DNA of 60,614 nucleotides. Source: an uncultured Eubacteriales bacterium. Its GTDB lineage: Bacteria > Actinomycetota > Coriobacteriia > Anaerosomatales > PHET01. Each line of letters starts with the position of its first letter. Within the stretch, counting starts at the first letter, position 1. Below the pieces are notes generated by a model. It was not told the origin of the DNA. It saw nothing but the letters and a program-made list of their open reading frames with translations, and searched no databases. The translations under genes and the position numbers were made by a program. Positions 12,831 to 28,467 of this stretch are shown here, in pieces. Location: assembly GCA_964492775.1 (NCBI GenBank), contig CAZBLH010000002.1, forward strand, positions 1 through 60,614, written 5' to 3'.

Positions 12831-13403
12831 ATGGTTCGTACGCGGCAGCAGACCGGCGAGATGGTGACGGCATCGCTCGTGACAGCGCTCATGGGCGCGG
12901 CCGCGTACATCACCCTTCCTGTCGGCGCGGTTCCCGTCACCCTGCAGGTCTTCGTGGTCGTTCTCGCGTCGCTGTTGTTGACCGCACCATGGGCGGGGGC
13001 GTCGATGGTGCTCTACCTCGCCCTCGGAGCAGCAGGGCTGCCCGTGTTCTCCGGTGCACAGGGGGGCGTGGGCGTGCTCGCCGGGCCGACGGGCGGCTAC
13101 CTTGTGGGCTTTGCCGTCGCGGCGCCCACAGCAGCGATGTTGCGGACGCTCGTTGCGCGTCGACGACCGGGGGGCATCGCGGATGCCATTGCGGCGACCG
13201 TAGCCATCCTGATCATCTACGCGATCGGGACGGTTCAGCTCGCGCTCGTCACCGGCATGGGGATGGGTGCTGCCGTATTGGTGGGCGCCGTGCCCTTCGT
13301 GCTGCCCGATGCGCTGAAGGCGGCCGCATCCATCGCTGTAGCGGGAGCGGTTCGGCGTGCGCGCGGACCGATTACTCGGGCAGAGCGGGCAGCGACACGG
13401 TGA
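12831..13403 (+). CDS. bioY: Biotin ECF transporter S-component
   Basis: VPVTLQ, YLALGAAGLPVFSG, GPTGGYLVGF, PFVLPD.LK; next to birA. Confidence 0.95.
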   Translation: MVRTRQQTGEMVTASLVTALMGAAAYITLPVGAVPVTLQVFVVVLASLLLTAPWAGASMVLYLALGAAGLPVFSGAQGGVGVLAGPTGGYLVGFAVAAPTAAMLRTLVARRRPGGIADAIAATVAILIIYAIGTVQLALVTGMGMGAAVLVGAVPFVLPDALKAAASIAVAGAVRRARGPITRAERAATR

Positions 13404-14421
13404 AGCAGGTGCCGCCTTCGGGCCGGTTTGCGGCCCCGATGGTGCCGCCGTGTGACGTGACGATCGCCCGCACGATGGCCAGCCCGAGACCAGCGCCGCC
13501 GCGGCTGCGCGTCCGCGCGGTGTCCGAGCGGTAGAAGCGGTCGAACAGCCGCTCGATGTCGGCGTCGGGGATGCCGGGGCCGTCGTCCTTGATCTCGATG
13601 ACGGAGTTGCCGTTCTCGGCCGCTATCCGCACCCAGATGTGTCCTCCGTCGCCGACCATGCGGCTGCCGTTGTCGATGATGTTCGCGATGACTTGCTGGA
13701 GCCTATCGGCGTCGCCGAGCACGTGGGGCGCTGTCCCGATGACCTCGACGGCGACCCCTCGGTCCTCGAGCAGCGGCTCGAGCATGGTCACCGCGCGCTG
13801 CACCACATCAGCGACATCAACGCGCCTGAACGGGAGTTCTCCGGTTGCGCCCTCGATGCGCTGAAGCTGAAGCAGGTCGTTCGCAAGCCGAGTCAGCCGC
13901 GACGCCTCGGTGGCGATGGTCGAGAGGAAGCGTTCCTGGTCCTCGGCGGCGACACCGCCGTCGAGCAGTGTCTCGGCAGCTCCGCGGATGGCGGTGAGCG
14001 GGGTCCTCAGCTCGTGGCTCACGTCTGACACGAACTGGGTCTTTCGGCGCTCCTCGCTCGTGAGCTCCTCCATCGCGGAGGAGACGTCGTCGGCCATGCG
14101 GTTGAAGGAGTCGGCAATTACGCGGACCTCTCTCGGCCCGCGGACCTCGGCGCGCCTCAGGCGGTCACCGGCCGAGAAGGACGCCGAGACGGCCGCGAGC
14201 TGCTCGAGGGGCGCCGCAGCTCGCCGAGCGAACGCTGCCGCGAACGGCCACGCGAGCACGCAGGCGGCGCCGACCGCTGTCGCCATGACCGGAAGCAGCC
14301 GCCGGATGTCGCCGCCATCGACGAGCGCCATTCCGAGCGTCACGAGCGCGCAGGCGATCGCACCGCTACCCGCCGCGACGATCACGGCACGGGTGATCCG
14401 ACCGCGCAGGCTGCCTCGCAT
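13372..14421 (-). CDS. Membrane sensor histidine kinase (2 TM, HAMP, HisKA, HATPase)
   Basis: VSHELRTPLTAI, NIIDNG, DDGPGI, GAGLGLAI; very short loop between the TM helices. Confidence 0.94.
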   Translation of the reverse strand: MRGSLRGRITRAVIVAAGSGAIACALVTLGMALVDGGDIRRLLPVMATAVGAACVLAWPFAAAFARRAAAPLEQLAAVSASFSAGDRLRRAEVRGPREVRVIADSFNRMADDVSSAMEELTSEERRKTQFVSDVSHELRTPLTAIRGAAETLLDGGVAAEDQERFLSTIATEASRLTRLANDLLQLQRIEGATGELPFRRVDVADVVQRAVTMLEPLLEDRGVAVEVIGTAPHVLGDADRLQQVIANIIDNGSRMVGDGGHIWVRIAAENGNSVIEIKDDGPGIPDADIERLFDRFYRSDTARTRSRGGAGLGLAIVRAIVTSHGGTIGAANRPEGGTCFTVSLPALPE

Positions 14422-14423
14422 AT

Positions 14424-15131
14424 CTAGCTCGCCCTGAATCGGTAGCCGTAGCCGCGGACGGTCTCGACGATCGCCGCGTCAAGCCCTGCGGCCTCCAACT
14501 TGTCGCGCAGGCGCTTGACGTGGGTATCGACGGTCTTCGTCTCCACGAGGTACTCCCAGTCCCACGCCTCCCGGAGCAGCTGGTCACGGGAGAGCACCTT
14601 GCCCGCATGGCGCATCAGGCAGGCGAGGAGTTCGAACTCGCGTGGCGTCAGGTCGATTGCCGTTCCCCGATCGGTGACGGCCTCGTGCGAGGCCTCGTCG
14701 AGCACGACCCCCGAGATCTCCATGCGCTCCGAAGGCCCCTGGACATCTCGGCCGCCTGGCTGACCTCGACGCAGCAGCGCCTTGACCCGCGCGACGAGCT
14801 CGCGCACGCCGAACGGCTTCGCAAGGTAATCGTCGCCGCCGATCTCCAGGCCGACGACCTTGTCGAGTTCGGTATCTCGCGCCGAGAGGAACAGCACCGG
14901 CACGCTTGAGAGTGAACGGAGGCGGCGGCAGACCTCGTAGCCGTCCATTCCTGGCAGCATCACGTCGAGCACGACGAGGTCGAAGTCCTTCTTGCGCGCC
15001 AGCTCGAGCGCGCTGTCGCCATCTCCCGCGACGTCGACCTCCCAGCCCTCCTTGCGCAGGTTGTAGCTCACGAACTCGGTGATGGAGGGCTCGTCGTCGA
15101 CGACGAGGATGCGGGCGGATGTCTCAGTCAT
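14424..15131 (-). CDS. OmpR/PhoB-family response regulator
   Basis: ILVVDDE, LDVMLP, DDYLAKPF, LTPREFELL, VDTHVKRLRDK, TVRGYGY; ATG at 15131 after AGGAG. Confidence 0.95.
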   Translation of the reverse strand: MTETSARILVVDDEPSITEFVSYNLRKEGWEVDVAGDGDSALELARKKDFDLVVLDVMLPGMDGYEVCRRLRSLSSVPVLFLSARDTELDKVVGLEIGGDDYLAKPFGVRELVARVKALLRRGQPGGRDVQGPSERMEISGVVLDEASHEAVTDRGTAIDLTPREFELLACLMRHAGKVLSRDQLLREAWDWEYLVETKTVDTHVKRLRDKLEAAGLDAAIVETVRGYGYRFRAS

Positions 15132-15288
15132 ATGCTGACTCCTGAAGACGTGTCGGAGGACGTCGGCCGTCGGGCCAATCGTCGCGGGCTTGTCACCCGT
15201 TTGACCGCGACCGATGATAGCATCGTTACCCGAGCGGCCCTGGTCTGCCGTCACCGTGCCGTCACCGGATCCTGTGTCAGGAGAACCA

Positions 15289-16053
15289 GTGCTTCTAGCC
15301 GTAGATGTGGGAAACACGCAGAGCGTGCTCGGCTTGTTCGACGAGGACGAACTCGTCGCAACATGGCGAATCTCGTCCAATCCCGGCCTGACAGGTGACG
15401 AGCTGCGAGTCAAGACCGCCGGGCTGTTGGCGCTCTCCGGTCGCGGGTGGGCCGAGGTGCACGAGGTCATCCTCGCCTCCGTCGTGCCGCGCCTGACGCA
15501 CGTCTGGGAGGATGCGGTACTTGAGGCGACCGGGACCTCAACGCTCGTCGTGGGGCCGGGACTCAAGACCGGGATGCCTATCCGGTACGACAATCCCCAC
15601 GAGGTCGGCGCCGATCGCATCGTCAACGGCATCGCTGCCTACCGGGACTTTGGCGGTCCCGTCATCGTCGTGGACTTTGGCACGGCGACCACGCTGGACG
15701 TGATCACGGAAGATGGGGCGTACCTCGGCGGTACGATCTCACCGGGGCTCGAGACGAGTGCTGAGGCGCTGTTCACCAAGGCGGCGCGGTTGTCCAAGGT
15801 CGATCTCGACCCGCCTGAGCGCGTGATCGGTACGAACACCCGCGCCTCGGTGCAGGCGGGTCTGCTTCTTGGCGAGGTCGAGCGGGTGGACGGTCTCGTG
15901 CGCCGTGTATGGCGCGAACTCGGGCGGGAGACGACGGTGGTGGCTACCGGTGGGCTTGCGCCCACGCTCGCCCCTCTGTGCGCGACGGTCGAACACGTCG
16001 ATGTGGACCTCACGCTCAAGGGGTTGCGCATGGTGCGTGACCTGAACCGCTAA
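15289..16053 (+). CDS. coaX: Type III pantothenate kinase
   Basis: LLAVDVGNT, ASVVP, EVGADR, VDFGTATT, VATGG. Confidence 0.96.
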   Translation: MLLAVDVGNTQSVLGLFDEDELVATWRISSNPGLTGDELRVKTAGLLALSGRGWAEVHEVILASVVPRLTHVWEDAVLEATGTSTLVVGPGLKTGMPIRYDNPHEVGADRIVNGIAAYRDFGGPVIVVDFGTATTLDVITEDGAYLGGTISPGLETSAEALFTKAARLSKVDLDPPERVIGTNTRASVQAGLLLGEVERVDGLVRRVWRELGRETTVVATGGLAPTLAPLCATVEHVDVDLTLKGLRMVRDLNR

Positions 16054-16098: not shown

Positions 16099-16127
16099 TA
16101 TACTCCTGTAGACATTATTGTGTACAG
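16099..16127 (+). promoter_or_regulatory. -10 box followed by a candidate autorepressor operator
   Basis: TATACT at 16099-16104, then CTGTAGACA-TTAT-TGTGTACAG (9-bp arms, one mismatch) at 16106-16127. Confidence 0.6.
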
Positions 16128-16141
16128 CCCGGGAGCGATTC

Positions 16142-16768
16142 ATGCGACTGTTCCGCATCGGCGACAAGGTGGTGAGCCGAGAGAAGCTCTTCGATGCGGT
16201 CGAGGCCATCTTGGAGGACCGCGAGTCCGGCGCGACCCAGGAGGAGGCGGCACGCCGACACGACGTGCAGCGCTCGTTCGTCTCGTTTCTCGAAACGCTC
16301 GGCGAAGTCCGACGAGGACCCCGGGTGGCTTTGGTCGCCTTTCCTGTCGTGAATGTTGATGAGGTTCGCGCTCTGGCGTCGTCGTACTCCCTCGATTTTG
16401 TCTTGGTCCTGAGCCAGTCGGACAGGGAGTCAATCGAGTCTGGAGATGCGACCGGAATCTTCAACCAGTTGCTTGAGACGCTCGCTGCTCTGCGCGATTT
16501 CGACACGGTCATCATCGCCGCGAGCGACTGGCGAGTGGCGACCATTGAACGGATTCTCGGCACCGAGGTTGTGAGCATGCCGCTCGGCCAGTCGCCGTTG
16601 CGCGAAGACGTGAAGCTCGACCTCGGTGAGTTGGAGCGTGTCCTGTCGGCAGTGATGAGCCGGTCGCCCTCGCGGTCGCGGGGCCGGACTGGACGAGTAG
16701 GGCGCGCGATAAAGGATGTCGCGGATGTGGCCGGGAGGTGGACGCAATCAAGGAAGTCGTCGGCATAA
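16142..16768 (+). CDS. Putative HTH transcriptional regulator of an uncharacterised conserved family
   Basis: GATQEEAARRHDVQRSFVSFLE is HTH-like; RIGDK..S.EK and LGEVRRG..VAL..FP recalled from a family of hypothetical regulators. Confidence 0.65.
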   Translation: MRLFRIGDKVVSREKLFDAVEAILEDRESGATQEEAARRHDVQRSFVSFLETLGEVRRGPRVALVAFPVVNVDEVRALASSYSLDFVLVLSQSDRESIESGDATGIFNQLLETLAALRDFDTVIIAASDWRVATIERILGTEVVSMPLGQSPLREDVKLDLGELERVLSAVMSRSPSRSRGRTGRVGRAIKDVADVAGRWTQSRKSSA

Positions 16769-17721
16769 GCATTGGATCTTCTCGGCGGGACCACAGCGTG
16801 GAGGTCCAGCTGTTCGGAGAGACGTTCCGCATACGCAGGGAAGGAACGGACGGCGATCTGGATGCCGCCGCCGCGCGCATCGCTGAGCTCGATGGGAAGG
16901 TCGACGCGTTCGGGCTTGGAGGCATCGATCTGTACCTGCACGCCGCGGGGCACGACTACTACTTCCGTGAGGCGAAGCGGTTCCGTGCTGCCGCCCAGAA
17001 GACGCCCATCGTCGACGGGTCGGGGCTCAAGGGGGCGGTTGAGGGCGATGTCGTGCGCTTCCTTGCCGAGGACCTTGGACTCGAACTCGCGGGCAAGCGG
17101 GTCCTGGTGACCTCCGCGGTAGACCGCTGGGGCATGGCCATGGCCTTTGCCGACGCCGGGTGCGAGATGACCTACGCGGATCTGCTGTACGCGCTCTCGA
17201 TCCCCATGATGATCCACAAGAAGCCCACGCTCGAGCGGGTGGTGCACGCCATGGCGCCGCTTGCCGTCCAGCTGCCCTTCAAGTGGTTGTACGAGTCAGA
17301 GGCAGATGACACGACGGCAACCAAGTCGAACAGCCCTCATTCGAGTCTGTACAAGGAAGCCGACATCATCGCCGGCGACTTCAAGTACGTGCGCCGGTAC
17401 ATGCCCGATGACATGTCCGGCAAGTGGGTTGTGACCAACACCACGACGCCTGAGGACATCGAGTTCCTGCGTTCGCGGGGAGTGAGCCTGCTCGTGACCT
17501 CGACCCCGCGCCTTGCGGGCCGAAGCTTCGGGACAAACATCATCGAGGCGACGATGGTCGCTCTTGAGGGAACCAGGCAATCCTTGGCCCCGGAGCGCTA
17601 CATGGAGCTGCTGCGCGCAACCGGGTTTACGCCTGATTTCCGGTGGCTGAACGAAGGGCCGCCGATCGGTGCCAGCGAGCCTGAGGTATCTGCTGTCGCA
17701 CCACTGCCGTCCTCGGCATGA
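16738..17721 (+). CDS. Conserved uncharacterised enzyme-like protein (homologues often auto-annotated 'quinate 5-dehydrogenase')
   Basis: SIGSSRRDH, GTDGD, DAFGLGG, PIVDGSGLK, GRSFGTN; family name is from recollection, function not established. Confidence 0.6.
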   Translation: MDAIKEVVGISIGSSRRDHSVEVQLFGETFRIRREGTDGDLDAAAARIAELDGKVDAFGLGGIDLYLHAAGHDYYFREAKRFRAAAQKTPIVDGSGLKGAVEGDVVRFLAEDLGLELAGKRVLVTSAVDRWGMAMAFADAGCEMTYADLLYALSIPMMIHKKPTLERVVHAMAPLAVQLPFKWLYESEADDTTATKSNSPHSSLYKEADIIAGDFKYVRRYMPDDMSGKWVVTNTTTPEDIEFLRSRGVSLLVTSTPRLAGRSFGTNIIEATMVALEGTRQSLAPERYMELLRATGFTPDFRWLNEGPPIGASEPEVSAVAPLPSSA

Positions 17722-17787
17722 GGGTTGCTTCGAGCAGGCATGAGCAGCGCTGCGGGCGCAGGGCTATTTCCGTGACGCGCATGCTCG

Positions 17788-17839
17788 GAGATGTTAGAAT
17801 TCGGGCGTTCAGGTAAGCAGTGGTTCGGACGGTGCGTTG
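17788..17839 (+). promoter_or_regulatory. ccm operon extended -10 promoter and conserved leader start
   Basis: TGnTAGAAT at 17792-17800; GAGATG-N-TAGAAT-N6-GTTCAGG and GGTGCGTT shared with the hemA upstream region. Confidence 0.7.
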
Positions 17840-17909: not shown

Positions 17910-18587
17910 GTGAACAAGCGTGCACGTACGCGACTGATCGGTGTCACCGCCATCATCCTGATCGCCGTTGCGGCGATCTTCCTCGCCGGCGGGAACAAGA
18001 CCGCCGCCTACTACAAGACGGTTGAAGAAGCAGCTGCCGACGACACACTCGTCGGTGAGCGCGTCAAAGTCGGTGGGGCCGTTGTTCCCGGCTCTTGGGA
18101 CCGCAAGTCGAACCCCATGACCTTCACAATCCGCGACGAGAGCGACACGTCCGGCACGGGCGCGACCGTGCGCGTCGTCTACAACGGCTCGGTCCCCAGC
18201 ACGTTTGGTGACGGGGTCGTGGCGATCGTCACCGGCGAGCTCGACCAGTCTCGCACCATCGCCGCGGACGAGATGATCACCAAGTGTCCGTCCAAGTACG
18301 AGTCGGCCGAGGGCTCGATGCCCGTGCAGGATCTTGTCGGCAAGGGTGACTCGATGGTCGGCACGACCGTCAAGGCGTCCGGCATCATCAAGGCTGGCTC
18401 CATCGTTCCGCCGGGCGGTGAGTCCCGCTTCGTCCTCACGTCCGAGGGGTCTGGCGGTATCGAGATCCGGGTTGCCTACGATGGCGCGTTGCCCGATGGC
18501 ATGAAGGATGGTTCTGAGGTAGTTGTGACAGGCGCACTCGAAGCGGACGGTGTCTTCGTCGCCACGGGCGTGGCGCTTGCGGAGTAA
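17910..18587 (+). CDS. ccmE: Heme chaperone CcmE, CxxxY variant, with a second CcmE-like domain
   Basis: N-terminal TM, GERVKVGGAVVPGS, VVYNGSVPSTFGDG, KCPSKY (CPSKY at 18285-18299). Confidence 0.9.
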   Translation: MNKRARTRLIGVTAIILIAVAAIFLAGGNKTAAYYKTVEEAAADDTLVGERVKVGGAVVPGSWDRKSNPMTFTIRDESDTSGTGATVRVVYNGSVPSTFGDGVVAIVTGELDQSRTIAADEMITKCPSKYESAEGSMPVQDLVGKGDSMVGTTVKASGIIKAGSIVPPGGESRFVLTSEGSGGIEIRVAYDGALPDGMKDGSEVVVTGALEADGVFVATGVALAE

Positions 18588-25005: not shown

Positions 25006-25856
25006 GACCCCCCGCCTTATCCTCAACTCAAGGCCTCGCCGTCATCACCGGCGGCTCGAGTGGAATGGGTCTCGCCACTGCGAAGCAGCTCGCTGCGCGT
25101 GGCATGCGCGTGGTGATCGTCTCTCGCGATCCCGCCAAGCTGGCCGCAGCGCACGAACAGATCGCGAATGTGGCGTCGCACGGCAGTTACGTCGCGTCCT
25201 TCTCGGCGGATCTCTCGAACTGGGAGGCGACCGAGGCCGTCTTCGGCCGCATCACCTCCGAGTTTGGCGTGCCGGACGTGCTCGTGAACTCGGCAGGAGT
25301 GATCTACCCCGGCGAGTTCGTCTCCATGCCGCTCTCTGATTTTGAGATCAACATGACGTGCGGGTACTGGAGCGTCGTGTACCCGTGCCGAGCAGCAGCG
25401 CCACTCATGGCCGAGCGGGGGAGCGGGCACATCATCAACGTCTCGTCCGTCGCAGGCTTCTTGGGCATCTACGGCTACACGGGCTACTCCTCGGCGAAGT
25501 TCGCGGTCGTCGGTTTTTCCGAGGCGCTACGCTTCGAGATGCGGCCGGCTGGCGTGCGGGTCAGCTGCATCTGCCCGCCCGACACTGAGACCCCCGCTCT
25601 CGCGCTCGAGCACACCATGCGCCCGCACGAGACCGACGTCATCGCCGGAAACATCAAGCCGATACCAGCCGAGAAGGTCGCGGAGGCGATAGTGGCATCG
25701 ATCGGCCGGGACCGGTTCATGGTGATTCCGGACGCACTCTCGGCTTTCTACTTCCGGCTGAAGGGGCTGCTCCCCGAGGTCTTCCAAGCGATCGTCGACG
25801 GGGACGTGCGCAAGGCCCGGGCGGCCCGAACGACCGATGCGCGCAAGGGCGGATGA
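25002..25856 (+). CDS. Short-chain dehydrogenase/reductase, 3-ketodihydrosphingosine reductase (KDSR)-like
   Basis: TGGSSGMG, NSAG, SSVAG, YTGYSSAKFA, PPDTETP. Confidence 0.8.
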   Translation: MRPPALSSTQGLAVITGGSSGMGLATAKQLAARGMRVVIVSRDPAKLAAAHEQIANVASHGSYVASFSADLSNWEATEAVFGRITSEFGVPDVLVNSAGVIYPGEFVSMPLSDFEINMTCGYWSVVYPCRAAAPLMAERGSGHIINVSSVAGFLGIYGYTGYSSAKFAVVGFSEALRFEMRPAGVRVSCICPPDTETPALALEHTMRPHETDVIAGNIKPIPAEKVAEAIVASIGRDRFMVIPDALSAFYFRLKGLLPEVFQAIVDGDVRKARAARTTDARKGG

Positions 25857-25950
25857 GGCACGGAATCGGCTGGTGAATAGGCTTAATGAACCTTTCGGCA
25901 GGGGGTTTGCTTGCCCTCTGACGTGCGCGGGAGCTGGTAAGAGGGCTTGT

Positions 25951-26144
25951 GAGATGGTAGAATCGCGGAGTTCAGGCGAAAAGCTGGTGCGTTCAATGAA
26001 GAAGTTATACACCGCCCTCGCCGGGCCTGCTTGCCTGAACACCAACGCACCGCTCCGGCGAGGGCGTACCTATGTCCTGACGGGCCCGTGTCTCGGCGAC
26101 GAGGCGGGCGTAGACGATTCAATCGGTGAGGCGATCAAAGCCGC
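25951..26144 (+). promoter_or_regulatory. hemA extended -10 promoter and ~175-nt structured 5' leader (candidate regulatory RNA)
   Basis: TGnTAGAAT 25955-25963; 12-bp stem 26013-26024/26055-26066; crossing helices 25970-25979/26031-26040 and 25986-25993/26044-26051; GNRA hairpin 26084-26109. Confidence 0.7.
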
Positions 26145-27518
26145 ATGCATCTGACGCTTGTGGGGCTCAGCCACAAGACCGCTCCGGTCGCCATACGCGA
26201 GAAGCTCACGTTCTCCGAGAGTGCGCAAGCTGACGCGCTCACTCGGCTGACCGGCCTCAAGAGCGTCTCCGAGGCCGTCATCCTCTCGACGTGCAACCGC
26301 ACCGAGGTATACGCGCTCACCTCGGCATCCGTCGACGGCCCTGGCGCAATCATCGAGTTCCTCGCTGAGTACCATGACCTCGATCCTGTCGAGCTGACCC
26401 GTTATCTCTACATCGAGGAGGGTGAGGCGGTCGTTCGGCATCTGTTCCGCGTCGTGGCCTCGCTCGACTCCATGGTGCTCGGCGAAGCGCAGATTCTCGG
26501 GCAGGTGAAGGACGCCTACGAGGTCGCCTTCCAGAACCAGGCATGTGGGCGGGTGTTCAACCGCCTGTTCAGGCAATCGTTCGAGGTCGGCAAGCGTGTT
26601 CGTACCGAGACCGACATCGGCGAGAACGCCGTCTCGATCAGCTACGCGGCGATCGAGCTCACCAAGCGCGTCTTCGAGAAGCTTGAAGGACGCTGTGTCT
26701 TGGTGATCGGCGCCGGCAAGATGAGCGAACTCACCGCCAAGCACCTCGTGAGCAACGGCGTGCGGCGTGTCCTTGTCGCGAACCGCACCTTCGAGCGCGC
26801 GCGCGATCTCGCCGAGAAGTTCGGCGGCGAGGCAATCGAGTACGACAAGCTCTACGAGCGCATGCGCGAGGCCGACATCGTCATCTCCTCGACGGCTGCA
26901 ACCAGCTATGTGATCACCCGCGACGAAATCGCGCGCGTCGCGCGCCGCCGCCGCGATCCGCTGTTCCTGATCGACATCGCGGTGCCGCGTGACATCGACC
27001 CCGAGTGCGCGACCGTGCCCGACGTATTCCTCTACGACATCGATGCGCTGAACAACGTCGTCTCGGCGAACCTCGAGGAGCGGATGATCGAGGCGAAGCG
27101 CGCCGAGCTCATCATCGACGATGAGATCGCGTCCTTCGAGGCGTGGCTGGACTCGATGGAGGTCGTCCCGACCATCGCCGCGATCCGCACGAAGGCAGAG
27201 CAGGTGCGCGCCGAGGAGCTCGAGAAGGCTCTGAAGTGCCTCGGCGGGTTGTCGGAGAAGGAGCTGCAGGCGGTGGAGGCGCTGTCGTGCGCCATCGTCA
27301 ACAAGATGCTCCACGGCCCCACCGCGCGCCTCAAGAAGGTGGCCGCCGAGAAACACGGCTACAACTACGTACAAGCCGCCCGGTACCTGTACGGGCTCGA
27401 CACCAATCCTGATGGCAAGAACCCGCACTTGGGGCTTCTGAGGTCGCTGCTGGCCCGGGGAGAGAACACCTCCGGCGCCACGCCCGGCAACGAGATGGGA
27501 GACACCTGTGGCTACTAG
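26145..27518 (+). CDS. hemA: Glutamyl-tRNA reductase
   Basis: GLSHKTAP, LSTCNRTE, LDSMVLGEAQILGQVK, IGAGKM, DIAVPRD. Confidence 0.98.
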   Translation: MHLTLVGLSHKTAPVAIREKLTFSESAQADALTRLTGLKSVSEAVILSTCNRTEVYALTSASVDGPGAIIEFLAEYHDLDPVELTRYLYIEEGEAVVRHLFRVVASLDSMVLGEAQILGQVKDAYEVAFQNQACGRVFNRLFRQSFEVGKRVRTETDIGENAVSISYAAIELTKRVFEKLEGRCVLVIGAGKMSELTAKHLVSNGVRRVLVANRTFERARDLAEKFGGEAIEYDKLYERMREADIVISSTAATSYVITRDEIARVARRRRDPLFLIDIAVPRDIDPECATVPDVFLYDIDALNNVVSANLEERMIEAKRAELIIDDEIASFEAWLDSMEVVPTIAAIRTKAEQVRAEELEKALKCLGGLSEKELQAVEALSCAIVNKMLHGPTARLKKVAAEKHGYNYVQAARYLYGLDTNPDGKNPHLGLLRSLLARGENTSGATPGNEMGDTCGY

Positions 27519-28467
27519 CCGCGAGAAGCTCGTCATCGGCACGCGCGGAAGCAAATTGGCGCTGTGGCAGTCGGAGTACATCCGCGGGCTGATCGAGGAG
27601 CTGACAGGAATCCCGGTTGAGCTCAAGGTCATCAAGACGACGGGTGACAAGATCCTCGACGTCCCGCTCGCGAAGGTCGGCGGCAAGGGGCTGTTCACAA
27701 AGGAGATCGAGGTGGAGCTCGCCGCTGGGACGGTAGACCTGGCGGTCCACTCGATGAAGGACGTCCCGACGGAGCTGCCTGAGGGCCTCGGCATCCGTAT
27801 GATGCCGCCGCGGGTCGACCCGCGCGACGTCATCGTCTCGGGTGCCGGCTATGACCTCACCACGCTACCCGTTGGGGCGACGCTCGGCACGAGCTCACTC
27901 AGGCGCCGCAGTCAGGTCATCGCGCTGCGGCCCGACCTCAAGATCGTCGACGTGCGTGGCAACCTCGACACCCGGATGCGCAAGGCCGAGACGGGTGAGC
28001 TCGATGCCGTCATCCTCGCCTCCGCCGGAATCACTCGGCTGGGGTGGGAGGACCGGATCACTCACTACATCGAGCCAGATCAGATGGTGTCGGCGGTCGG
28101 CCAGGGGGCGATCGGCGTCGAGATTCGCGAGGACGATGAGTTCATGGCCGAGGTGTGCGCCAAGCTCACGGATGCCGACACGTTCTGCTGCGTTTCTGCC
28201 GAACGCGTCGTGATGCGCAAGCTCGAGGGCGGATGCCAGGTCCCAATCGGCGCGTACGCCCGCATCGTGGGCGGCACGCTCGTAATGGATGCATTCGTCG
28301 GCTCTGTTGACGGGACTCGCCAGGTGCGCGAGCGGCTTGAGGGCAGCGTCGAGGACCCGATCGAGCTTGGCGAGCGCATGGTTGCGCTGCTGCTCGAGCA
28401 TGGTGCTGACGCCATTCTCTCTGAGATCCGCAATGCCGAGGACGTCGACGACCTGCTGAAGACCTGA
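27508..28467 (+). CDS. hemC: Hydroxymethylbilane synthase
   Basis: GTRGSKLALWQ, GKGLFTKE, VHSMKD, GTSSLRR, GGCQVP. Confidence 0.98.
   Translation: MATSREKLVIGTRGSKLALWQSEYIRGLIEELTGIPVELKVIKTTGDKILDVPLAKVGGKGLFTKEIEVELAAGTVDLAVHSMKDVPTELPEGLGIRMMPPRVDPRDVIVSGAGYDLTTLPVGATLGTSSLRRRSQVIALRPDLKIVDVRGNLDTRMRKAETGELDAVILASAGITRLGWEDRITHYIEPDQMVSAVGQGAIGVEIREDDEFMAEVCAKLTDADTFCCVSAERVVMRKLEGGCQVPIGAYARIVGGTLVMDAFVGSVDGTRQVRERLEGSVEDPIELGERMVALLLEHGADAILSEIRNAEDVDDLLKT

Follow-up and report, generated by a model that had tools for sequence, protein, structure and literature searches.

The 5′ leader of hemA, the gene for glutamyl-tRNA reductase, contains three mutually crossing helices in the genome considered here. 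These are real RNA helices, and the leader belongs to an undescribed RNA module of Actinomycetota. The loop of one of its hairpins is complementary both to strands of the leader itself and to strands at the start of the ccmE leader, and the explanation preferred here, to which we give about an even chance of being right on the basis of sequence comparison, is that RNA-RNA pairing through this module couples the hem operon to the ccm operon and would thereby coordinate the making of haem with its use. How haem production is adjusted to what cytochrome c maturation requires is poorly understood in bacteria, and the element provides a conserved handle on this question.

The window, that is, the whole stretch of 60,614 nucleotides that was analysed, has the gene order ccmE-F-A-B-C-D, CcsA/HemX-like, SirC-like, SDR, leader, hemA, hemC, hemD, tRNA, hemB, as assigned by Pfam and, for the tRNA, by Rfam. 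The ccm string matches the Pfam families CcmE, CcmF_C, ABC_tran, CcmB, Cytochrom_C_asm, and CcmD, the last of these weakly. The features on which the argument rests are the following.

17792..17800, + strand: TGTTAGAAT, the ccm operon's extended -10 box, 6 nt upstream of a*
17807..17820, + strand: a*, GUUCAGGUAAGCAG, the putative ccmE mRNA 5′ end, complementary to loop positions 26027-26040
17830..17839, + strand: b*, CGGUGCGUUG, complementary to 26043-26052 over 10 bp
17910..18587, + strand: ccmE, heading the ccmEFABCD string that reaches up to the hemA leader
25955..25963, + strand: extended -10 box TGGTAGAAT, 6 nt upstream of helix a
25970..25979, + strand: 5′ strand of helix a, GUUCAGGCGA, the putative hemA mRNA 5′ end
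25983..25984, + strand: remnant of helix a2, of which only G25983-C26030 and C25984-G26029 pair in the window
25986..25993, + strand: 5′ strand of helix b, GGUGCGUU, pairing with b′
25994..26012, + strand: variable linker from b to c, non-alignable among relatives and holding a non-conserved ATG at 25996
26013..26025, + strand: 5′ strand of helix c, 13 bp
26026..26053, + strand: loop of hairpin c, called the receptor, 28 nt, carrying a2′, a′, an AC-rich linker, and b′
26054..26066, + strand: 3′ strand of helix c, identified by pairing and covariation
26067..26077, + strand: conserved pyrimidine-rich tail UACCUAUGUCC, with no U-tract
26084..26109, + strand: downstream hairpin, present in the nested MFE fold and in the alignment, its position kept and its sequence variable
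26125..26131, + strand: SD-like GGUGAGG, 13 nt upstream of the hemA ATG at 26145
26145..27518, + strand: hemA (glutamyl-tRNA reductase; Pfam GlutR_N, E 1e-56), followed by hemC, hemD, the tRNA, and hemB

Direct reading of the sequence and an independent repeat finder both recover the helices at the positions, and in the order a-b-c-a′-b′-c′, that had been given in the initial annotation. Helix a joins 25970-25979 to 26031-26040 by 10 bp including one G.U, helix b joins 25986-25993 to 26044-26051 by eight Watson-Crick pairs out of eight, and helix c joins 26013-26024 to 26055-26066 by 12 pairs out of 12, to which G26025.U26054 adds a 13th. Within the receptor loop, a2′ occupies 26027-26030, a′ 26031-26040, and b′ 26044-26051 (extendable to 26053), and the loop sequence TGCTTGCCTGAAC is invariant across the order. 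Helix a2 reads GCAG:CUGC in most relatives, with its third and fourth pairs standard in 28 and 27 of 30 leaders, respectively; the window and its genus-mate do not have the AG. The hairpin at about 26084-26109 and the GGTGAGG motif at 26125-26131, both pointed out in the same annotation, were likewise recovered, the former in the nested MFE fold. The alignment places a hairpin of differing sequence at 26084-26109 in most relatives and retains a GUGAGGCGAG-like SD box in most of the 30 related hemA leaders. The spacing of this SD-like box (window 26125-26144) to the hemA ATG is unusually long and constant, at 13-14 nt.

The way in which the helices are connected bears on whether they can coexist. 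In the alignment, their inner ends are joined by 1-2 nt from a/a2 to b, 2-3 nt from b′ to c′, and 1-2 nt from c to a2′/a′; it is at the distal ends alone that strands cross over, with AAC(A) leading from a′ to b′ and the variable linker from b to c. Since inner linkers of 1-3 nt are the connectivity of an ordinary three-way junction, the three helices can coexist, and from the alignment we think that a, b, and c form together as a pseudoknotted three-way junction. The initial annotation had considered it unlikely that all three would form at once and had proposed alternative folds, a/b versus c; this proposal is not borne out by the linkers, and no conserved competing or alternative helix that would make a/b and c mutually exclusive was found. 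By nested MFE, the leader does not exceed shuffled sequences in stability (z -0.68), as is to be expected because the fold program cannot see pseudoknots. The fold, with three mutually crossing helices closing a three-way junction, is an unusual one, and we know of no riboswitch architecture that has been described in this way.

Among the 41 genomes searched (the own genome and 40 relatives), hemA was found in 39, and 30 loci were fetched for a first alignment. In all of these the leader core is nearly invariant and much better conserved than its flanks, and the same three pairings are present in 30/30 leaders, with 97.7% of cells paired as against 37-43% when the partners are slid by 1-3 columns. 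Double changes occur in this set at seven pairs, all within helices b and c. A wider set of 54 full-type leaders, which includes more distant members, also displays compensatory changes in helix a, which pairs with a′ in 96% of cells and is changed on both sides at 3 of its 10 pairs (UA to CG in 1 sequence, CG to UA in 12, and GC to AU in 4), while helix c is compensated at 10 of its 13 pairs. None of 500 shuffles reaches the observed covariation values of helices a and c, a control that is inflated by relatedness and beside which the slid-partner controls fail too; as the genomes are related and so not independent, all these counts overstate the support. Helix b is retained at 5 bp or more in 52 of the 54 leaders with at least six different sequences, such as AGUGCAU:AUGCACU, GAGCGUGU:ACGCGCUU, and UUGUGUAUUUU:AAAAUGCACAA, and distant lineages build helix c from wholly different sequence, as in GUCUGUGCUGGC:GCCAGCACAGAC. 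In a second actinobacterial class, helix a reads GUUUAGGCAAGC:GCUUGCCUAAAC or GUUUAGACAAGC:GCUUGUCUAAAC, and in one genome it reads GUCCAGGC:GCCUGGAC; the loop of this class is altered from GCCUGAAC to GCCUAAAC or GUCUAAAC, with GUUUAGGC or GUUUAGAC opposite, and it changes only together with helix a. The view that the hemA leader is structured and conserved is thus upheld by the alignment of 30 leaders, and covariation across hemA leaders, which had been suggested as a check, is present in the set of 54.

The element corresponds to no established family. A cmscan of the whole window against Rfam 15 at gathering thresholds matched only one tRNA, and over 25700-26400 at E<=10 the best scores were 11-16 bits against thresholds of 38-100, with no family found, cobalamin, T-box, Moco, SAM, and ZTP included, in agreement with the earlier statement that the leader matches no riboswitch class. 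A literature search for a haem riboswitch or a hemA leader motif found none. PMC9971707 describes haem riboswitches as 'conspicuously absent' and reports no known RNA sensor or RNA link for haem.

Several familiar modes of leader control were considered and set aside. A T-box is disfavoured by the lack of any Rfam T-box match at E<=10, and pairing with tRNA-Glu by a loop duplex of -14.8 kcal/mol, which is weaker than the mean of 45 tRNAs/tmRNA (-19.7, sd 3.0). The + strand of the window has no intrinsic terminator, the tail after c′ being UACCUAUGUC, without a U-tract. A 52-codon ORF in the leader (window 25996-26154) ends at a TGA overlapping the hemA start (ATGCATCTGA); attenuation through a leader peptide encoded by this uORF was rejected, as its ATG at 25996 lies in the non-alignable linker and the frame has no Pfam match and is not conserved. 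Strand b could also pair with the hemA start (AUGCAYC), which was set aside as an unsupported coincidence.

The covariance model finds a single copy in the own genome and one per genome in 66 of the 68 sampled genomes of the same Coriobacteriia order. Weaker matches occur in three other families of the class (2/2, 6/10, and 3/3 genomes), and the model found none in three large families (0/24, 0/13, and 0/30). A sample of the phylum yielded the element in 5 of 151 genomes, the window's own counted, and the class to which the outliers of this sample belong, the second actinobacterial class mentioned above, yielded it in 22 of 48. A scan of species representatives with the exact a...a′ pattern gave 116 loci, almost all of them in records labelled as Coriobacteriia or Actinomycetota MAGs, and approximately 110 species-level genomes carry the canonical form. 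Six matches in odd taxa (Lachnospiraceae, Pyrinomonadaceae, Pseudomonadota, Leuconostocaceae, Ktedonobacteraceae, and Halioglobus) were checked and attributed to chance, having less than 16 bits or no model score. One carrier record, Coriobacteriaceae bacterium EMTCatB1, is not labelled as a MAG, and if this organism is in culture, experiments in a native host would be possible.

In every case the element adjoins genes of haem synthesis or of cytochrome c maturation (ccm), so that the link to tetrapyrrole genes drawn in the initial annotation extends to hemA/hem or ccm operons across lineages. Four contexts were distinguished: the element upstream of hemA; a hem operon headed by a mog-like gene (mog-like, CcsA-like, SirC, hemA, hemC, cobA-hemD, hemB, or in a variant mog-like, ResB, CcsA, hemA); a ccm operon (membrane protein, CcmE, CcmF, CcmA, CcmB, CcmC); and, for a weaker-scoring variant, FtrD-like, CcmE, CcmE, CcmF, CcmH. 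The first gene after the RNA in the hem operons of the second class is MogA/MoaB-like (MoCF_biosynth), an odd companion for haem genes. In one family of this class, hemA lies some 7 kb further along the same string and lacks its own leader, and many genomes of the class have a single cis copy that heads one long ccm-hem string, with no separate partner. A U-rich tail follows c′ in 11 of 23 leaders of the second class and in 1 of 38 of the own order, and in one genome c′ itself holds the hemA SD.

The second RNA with which the hemA leader is associated is the ccmE leader. A BLAST search with the ccm leader of the window against 40 relatives matched only the 5′ ends of hemA leaders, and ccm leaders were located through ccmE. 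Positions 17807-17820 of the window read GTTCAGGTAAGCAG, 6 nt after the TGTTAGAAT box, and the duplex of this strand (a*) with the loop has 14 uninterrupted bp with one U.G; positions 17830-17839 (b*) read CGGTGCGTTG. Strands a* and b* extend 4 nt and 2-3 nt past the cis helices, and their duplex energies in the window are -23.3 and -18.4 kcal/mol, as compared with -16.2 and -14.0 for the cis helices. In 27/27 genomes the a*-loop duplex has 14 uninterrupted bp and is stronger than its cis counterpart (mean -26.7 vs -21.4 kcal/mol). The ccm leader RNA had been mentioned in the initial annotation only as a side remark, which through this complementarity turned out to be central.

In 29 of 30 relatives, GTTCAGG opens the ccmE leader 6-7 nt downstream of a -10 box, and only a*, b*, and the SD are conserved within this leader; RNAalifold on 26 ccm leaders gave no consensus structure (-1.96 kcal/mol). 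The departures of a* from the perfect complement are G.U-compatible transitions in 28 of 30 cases, and the 2 disruptive ones are both at the helix end. In two genomes b* covaries with b′ (GCGGUGCAU:AUGCACCGC and GCAGUGCGU:ACGCACUGC). The loop and a* are jointly absent in 6/6 loop-less genomes checked, a result obtained with strict filters that may have missed weak loops, as is the case for the wide searches in general. In these comparisons, extended complementarity between two separately encoded transcripts is thus maintained in evolution, and it predicts direct cross-talk between hem and ccm messages.

The 5′ ends assumed in this comparison are suggested by promoter motifs. A TGnTAnnnT or TAnnnT box stands 6-7 nt before GTTCAGG in 30/30 hemA leaders, and a fixed spacing of the -10 box is found in 29/29 ccmE leaders as well. 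Going by the -10 consensus, we infer that the hemA transcript starts at or next to G25970, and the ccmE mRNA would begin at a* (17807). If the -10 spacing holds, with +1 as the first paired base, the pairing reaches the extreme 5′ end; longer transcripts of sigma-54 type are also possible. Elements of sigma-54 type (GGCA-N6-TTGCT) are present at window 25897-25911 and 17715-17729, the genome encodes sigma-54, rpoN (Sigma54_DBD, 193 bits), and 15 of 30 hemA and 25 of 29 ccmE leaders have a -24/-12 element of this type located 73-98 nt before the GTTCAGG strands. On account of these upstream elements, a and a* may be internal rather than 5′-terminal in some transcripts, and both operons may have tandem promoters and two leader isoforms. 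Metatranscriptome data contain a single exact contig of 194 nt, from one run, over 26106-26299, and 25970-26105 is uncovered by RNA contigs, which cannot show transcript ends.

Hairpin-only forms of the element, in which hairpin c and the conserved loop have no complementary strand within 90 nt, were identified at 15 loci in five families; their cis-partner z values range from -1.0 to +1.1, whereas those of 5 full-type controls with proper anchoring range from -1.6 to -6.3. The lineages concerned still carry a* at the start of the ccmE mRNA, and in one such genome a* reads GGUAGG, matching the loop variant CUUACC through a compensatory U-A pair. A split form occurs in a family for which no hemA was found (3 genomes, 77-90% complete), and in which the ccm operon has GUUCAGGCAA (a*) at its 5′ end and the hairpin at its 3′ end, 5 kb away, directly after ccmC-ccmD and before a terminator.

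Genome G321 combines a hairpin-only copy before the hem operon with three a*-headed mRNAs of cytochrome c biogenesis type, namely those of the ccm operon, of a membrane-anchored thioredoxin-like protein (ResA/CcmG-type), and of a 93-aa Met-rich secreted protein. The latter two begin with a* right after a -10 box, which suggests a small regulon of a*-headed messages. Seven extra matches to a wobble pattern were obtained in five genomes of the second class, and of 6 that were fetched, 4 lie in coding sequence and 2 in real 5′ leaders. A search of hairpin-only genomes for trans partners with a 14-nt pattern allowing up to 2 mismatches gave counts at the control level, and the three 1-mismatch matches fetched lie inside unrelated coding regions; a composite a+b pattern gave nothing above control in these genomes.

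According to the explanation preferred here, the core of the module would be hairpin c, with its 28-nt loop acting as a receptor for the transcript-start strands GUUCAGGCA..GCAG and GGUGCGU. In the window, a and b would be supplied in cis; together with c they would form the pseudoknotted three-way junction, and the 5′ end of the mRNA itself would be tied up in it. The ccm mRNA would begin with better-matched copies, a* and b*, whose overhangs past the cis helices could serve as toeholds for strand invasion, so that the receptor loop may alternatively capture the 5′ end of the ccm mRNA. Which 5′ end is shielded would depend on what fills the loop, the cis strands or the start of the ccm mRNA, and the pairing would couple the fates of the hem and ccm messages, with haem synthesis and the haem-attaching machinery expressed in step. 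The most likely route would be the shielding of a paired 5′ end from 5′-end-dependent decay, and an RNase J homologue is present in the genome (575 bits against a cut-off of 400). Where c precedes U's, as in low-GC relatives, read-through of a terminator at hairpin c may also be modulated. Pairing in trans within cells, together with its sign and mechanism, is put forward here as an interpretation, and the direction of regulation is a guess. Because many genomes of the second class have only the cis copy, trans pairing cannot be universal, and some function must belong to the cis fold by itself. The resemblance of a/b to a*/b* could in part stem from duplication of a 5′ half to which a common factor binds.

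A metabolite riboswitch, in which the a/b/c junction is an aptamer for haem, for a precursor (coproporphyrin, coprohaem, protoporphyrin, or ALA), or for iron, is possible but rather doubtful. The ligand would stabilize hairpin c, which is the terminator stem in low-GC relatives and elsewhere would hide an SD-like sequence; the U-rich tail in 11/23 loci of the second class and the genome whose c′ holds the hemA SD agree with such an arrangement. So do the complex covarying pseudoknot with its near-invariant junction and loop nucleotides, the position of this conserved structured domain in a 5′ UTR, and the single theme of the associated genes (hemA; mog-like/CcsA/SirC/hemA; CcmE-F-A-B-C; FtrD-like/CcmE), which together give the two generic signs of a riboswitch, structure and genes of one pathway, and haem riboswitches are described as 'conspicuously absent' in PMC9971707. 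Against this, the hairpin-only variants cannot build the junction yet retain the loop sequence, the partner strands can be carried by a different mRNA or lie at a distance of 5 kb, an uncommon arrangement for an aptamer, and the window has neither a conserved mutually exclusive helix nor a U-tract. The hairpin-only and split forms fit a base-pairing mechanism at least as well as ligand sensing. A further, improbable reading is a junction that acts as an aptamer for haem (or coprohaem/porphyrin) and is assembled either in cis or in trans from the hairpin-c loop and the ccm mRNA 5′ end. If true, no natural riboswitch responsive to haem, and no natural split one, would precede it, and it would sense the haem supply and wire this supply to synthesis as well as to cytochrome c maturation.

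That the leader is instead a binding site for a haem- or redox-responsive RNA-binding protein, which would recognize the loop and/or the 5′ strands of both mRNAs while the helices present or mask the site, is likewise improbable. The retention of the loop sequence even without a cis partner and the sharing of one 5′ sequence by two or more co-regulated mRNAs would be accounted for, but the loop of the second class changes together with helix a, the substitutions in a* are nearly all wobble-compatible, and no candidate protein accompanies the element across lineages. The co-change of loop and helix a and the wobble-compatible substitutions argue for base pairing, rather than a fixed protein motif, as the constraint. 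A feature at the level of DNA, with GTTCAGGCAAGCAG serving as a +1 operator in both the hemA and the ccm promoter and its inverted leader copy as a second operator, is highly improbable: the sequence does stand right after the -10 box of two operons that share sigma-54-type elements, but the differences between strands are G.U-type transitions that are sensible only in RNA, helices b and c covary independently, and a covarying hairpin, which can belong to a 3′ UTR at 5 kb from the promoter, always presents the inverted copy in its loop. Base pairing of the hairpin-c loop with the transcript-start strands is taken as the constraint because it explains the full, the hairpin-only, and the split forms. 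The natural split and hairpin-only variants amount to ready-made mutants for the dissection of the element.

The module can be compared with several known types of RNA regulation. With pseudoknotted riboswitch aptamers it has in common the position in a 5′ leader, the covarying pseudoknotted junction, and the single-theme genes, and it differs from them in that no ligand is known, Rfam gives no match, and hairpin-only and split versions exist. The leader of the SAM riboswitch SreA reportedly also acts in trans on prfA; like riboswitch leaders with such a trans role, the module has a possible terminator-type platform in some lineages and possibly a second role in trans. In the attenuation of plasmid replication genes by kissing-loop antisense RNAs (pT181/pIP501 type) and in the pairing of the 5′ and 3′ UTRs of icaR mRNA, a hairpin loop pairs with a strand elsewhere and decides termination or decay, as is proposed here, and the family without hemA, with its operon 5′ end and 3′ UTR, resembles icaR. 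The partners in those systems are antisense RNAs of the same locus, or the SD is targeted, whereas here sense leaders of two distinct operons are involved and the extreme 5′ end would be the target.

A close parallel is also offered by Listeria monocytogenes, in which, according to PMC8722363, the hly 3′UTR pairs with the prsA2 5′UTR and blocks RNase J1, protecting the target mRNA and coupling a chaperone to its substrate. In both systems one mRNA pairs, or here would pair, with the 5′ end of a functionally linked mRNA, and an RNase J homologue is present here too; in the present case the receptor loop is located within the hemA leader or at the 3′ end of the ccm operon, and its partner would be the ccm mRNA 5′ end. 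There is no sequence relationship to the hly-prsA2 pair, and, unlike it, the receptor here is a hairpin loop that takes up two strands in a three-helix junction, has a built-in competitor in cis, and is conserved across two classes; an effect on stability is a proposal here.

Some further observations concern the surroundings of the element. A histidine kinase is encoded at window 13372-15632 (- strand), immediately before the coaX-ccm-hem string, along with a response regulator of OmpR type whose N-terminal extension is long, and two ORFs (216 and 327 aa; window 16118-17721) between coaX and the ccm promoter match no Pfam family at E<=0.001. In genome G160, two leader and hemA copies with identical scores lie in inverted orientation 14 kb apart (contig C2:13948-14060 and 27965-28077), representing either a real inverted duplication or an assembly artefact. 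The own genome has a third a*-like site, GTTCAGGCAAGCGT, after a TAnnnT box on contig C34:1442, with a terminator-like hairpin about 45 nt further on and no ORF; the site has a DNA match in 1 of 40 relatives searched, and it could represent a small RNA carrying the a* strand.
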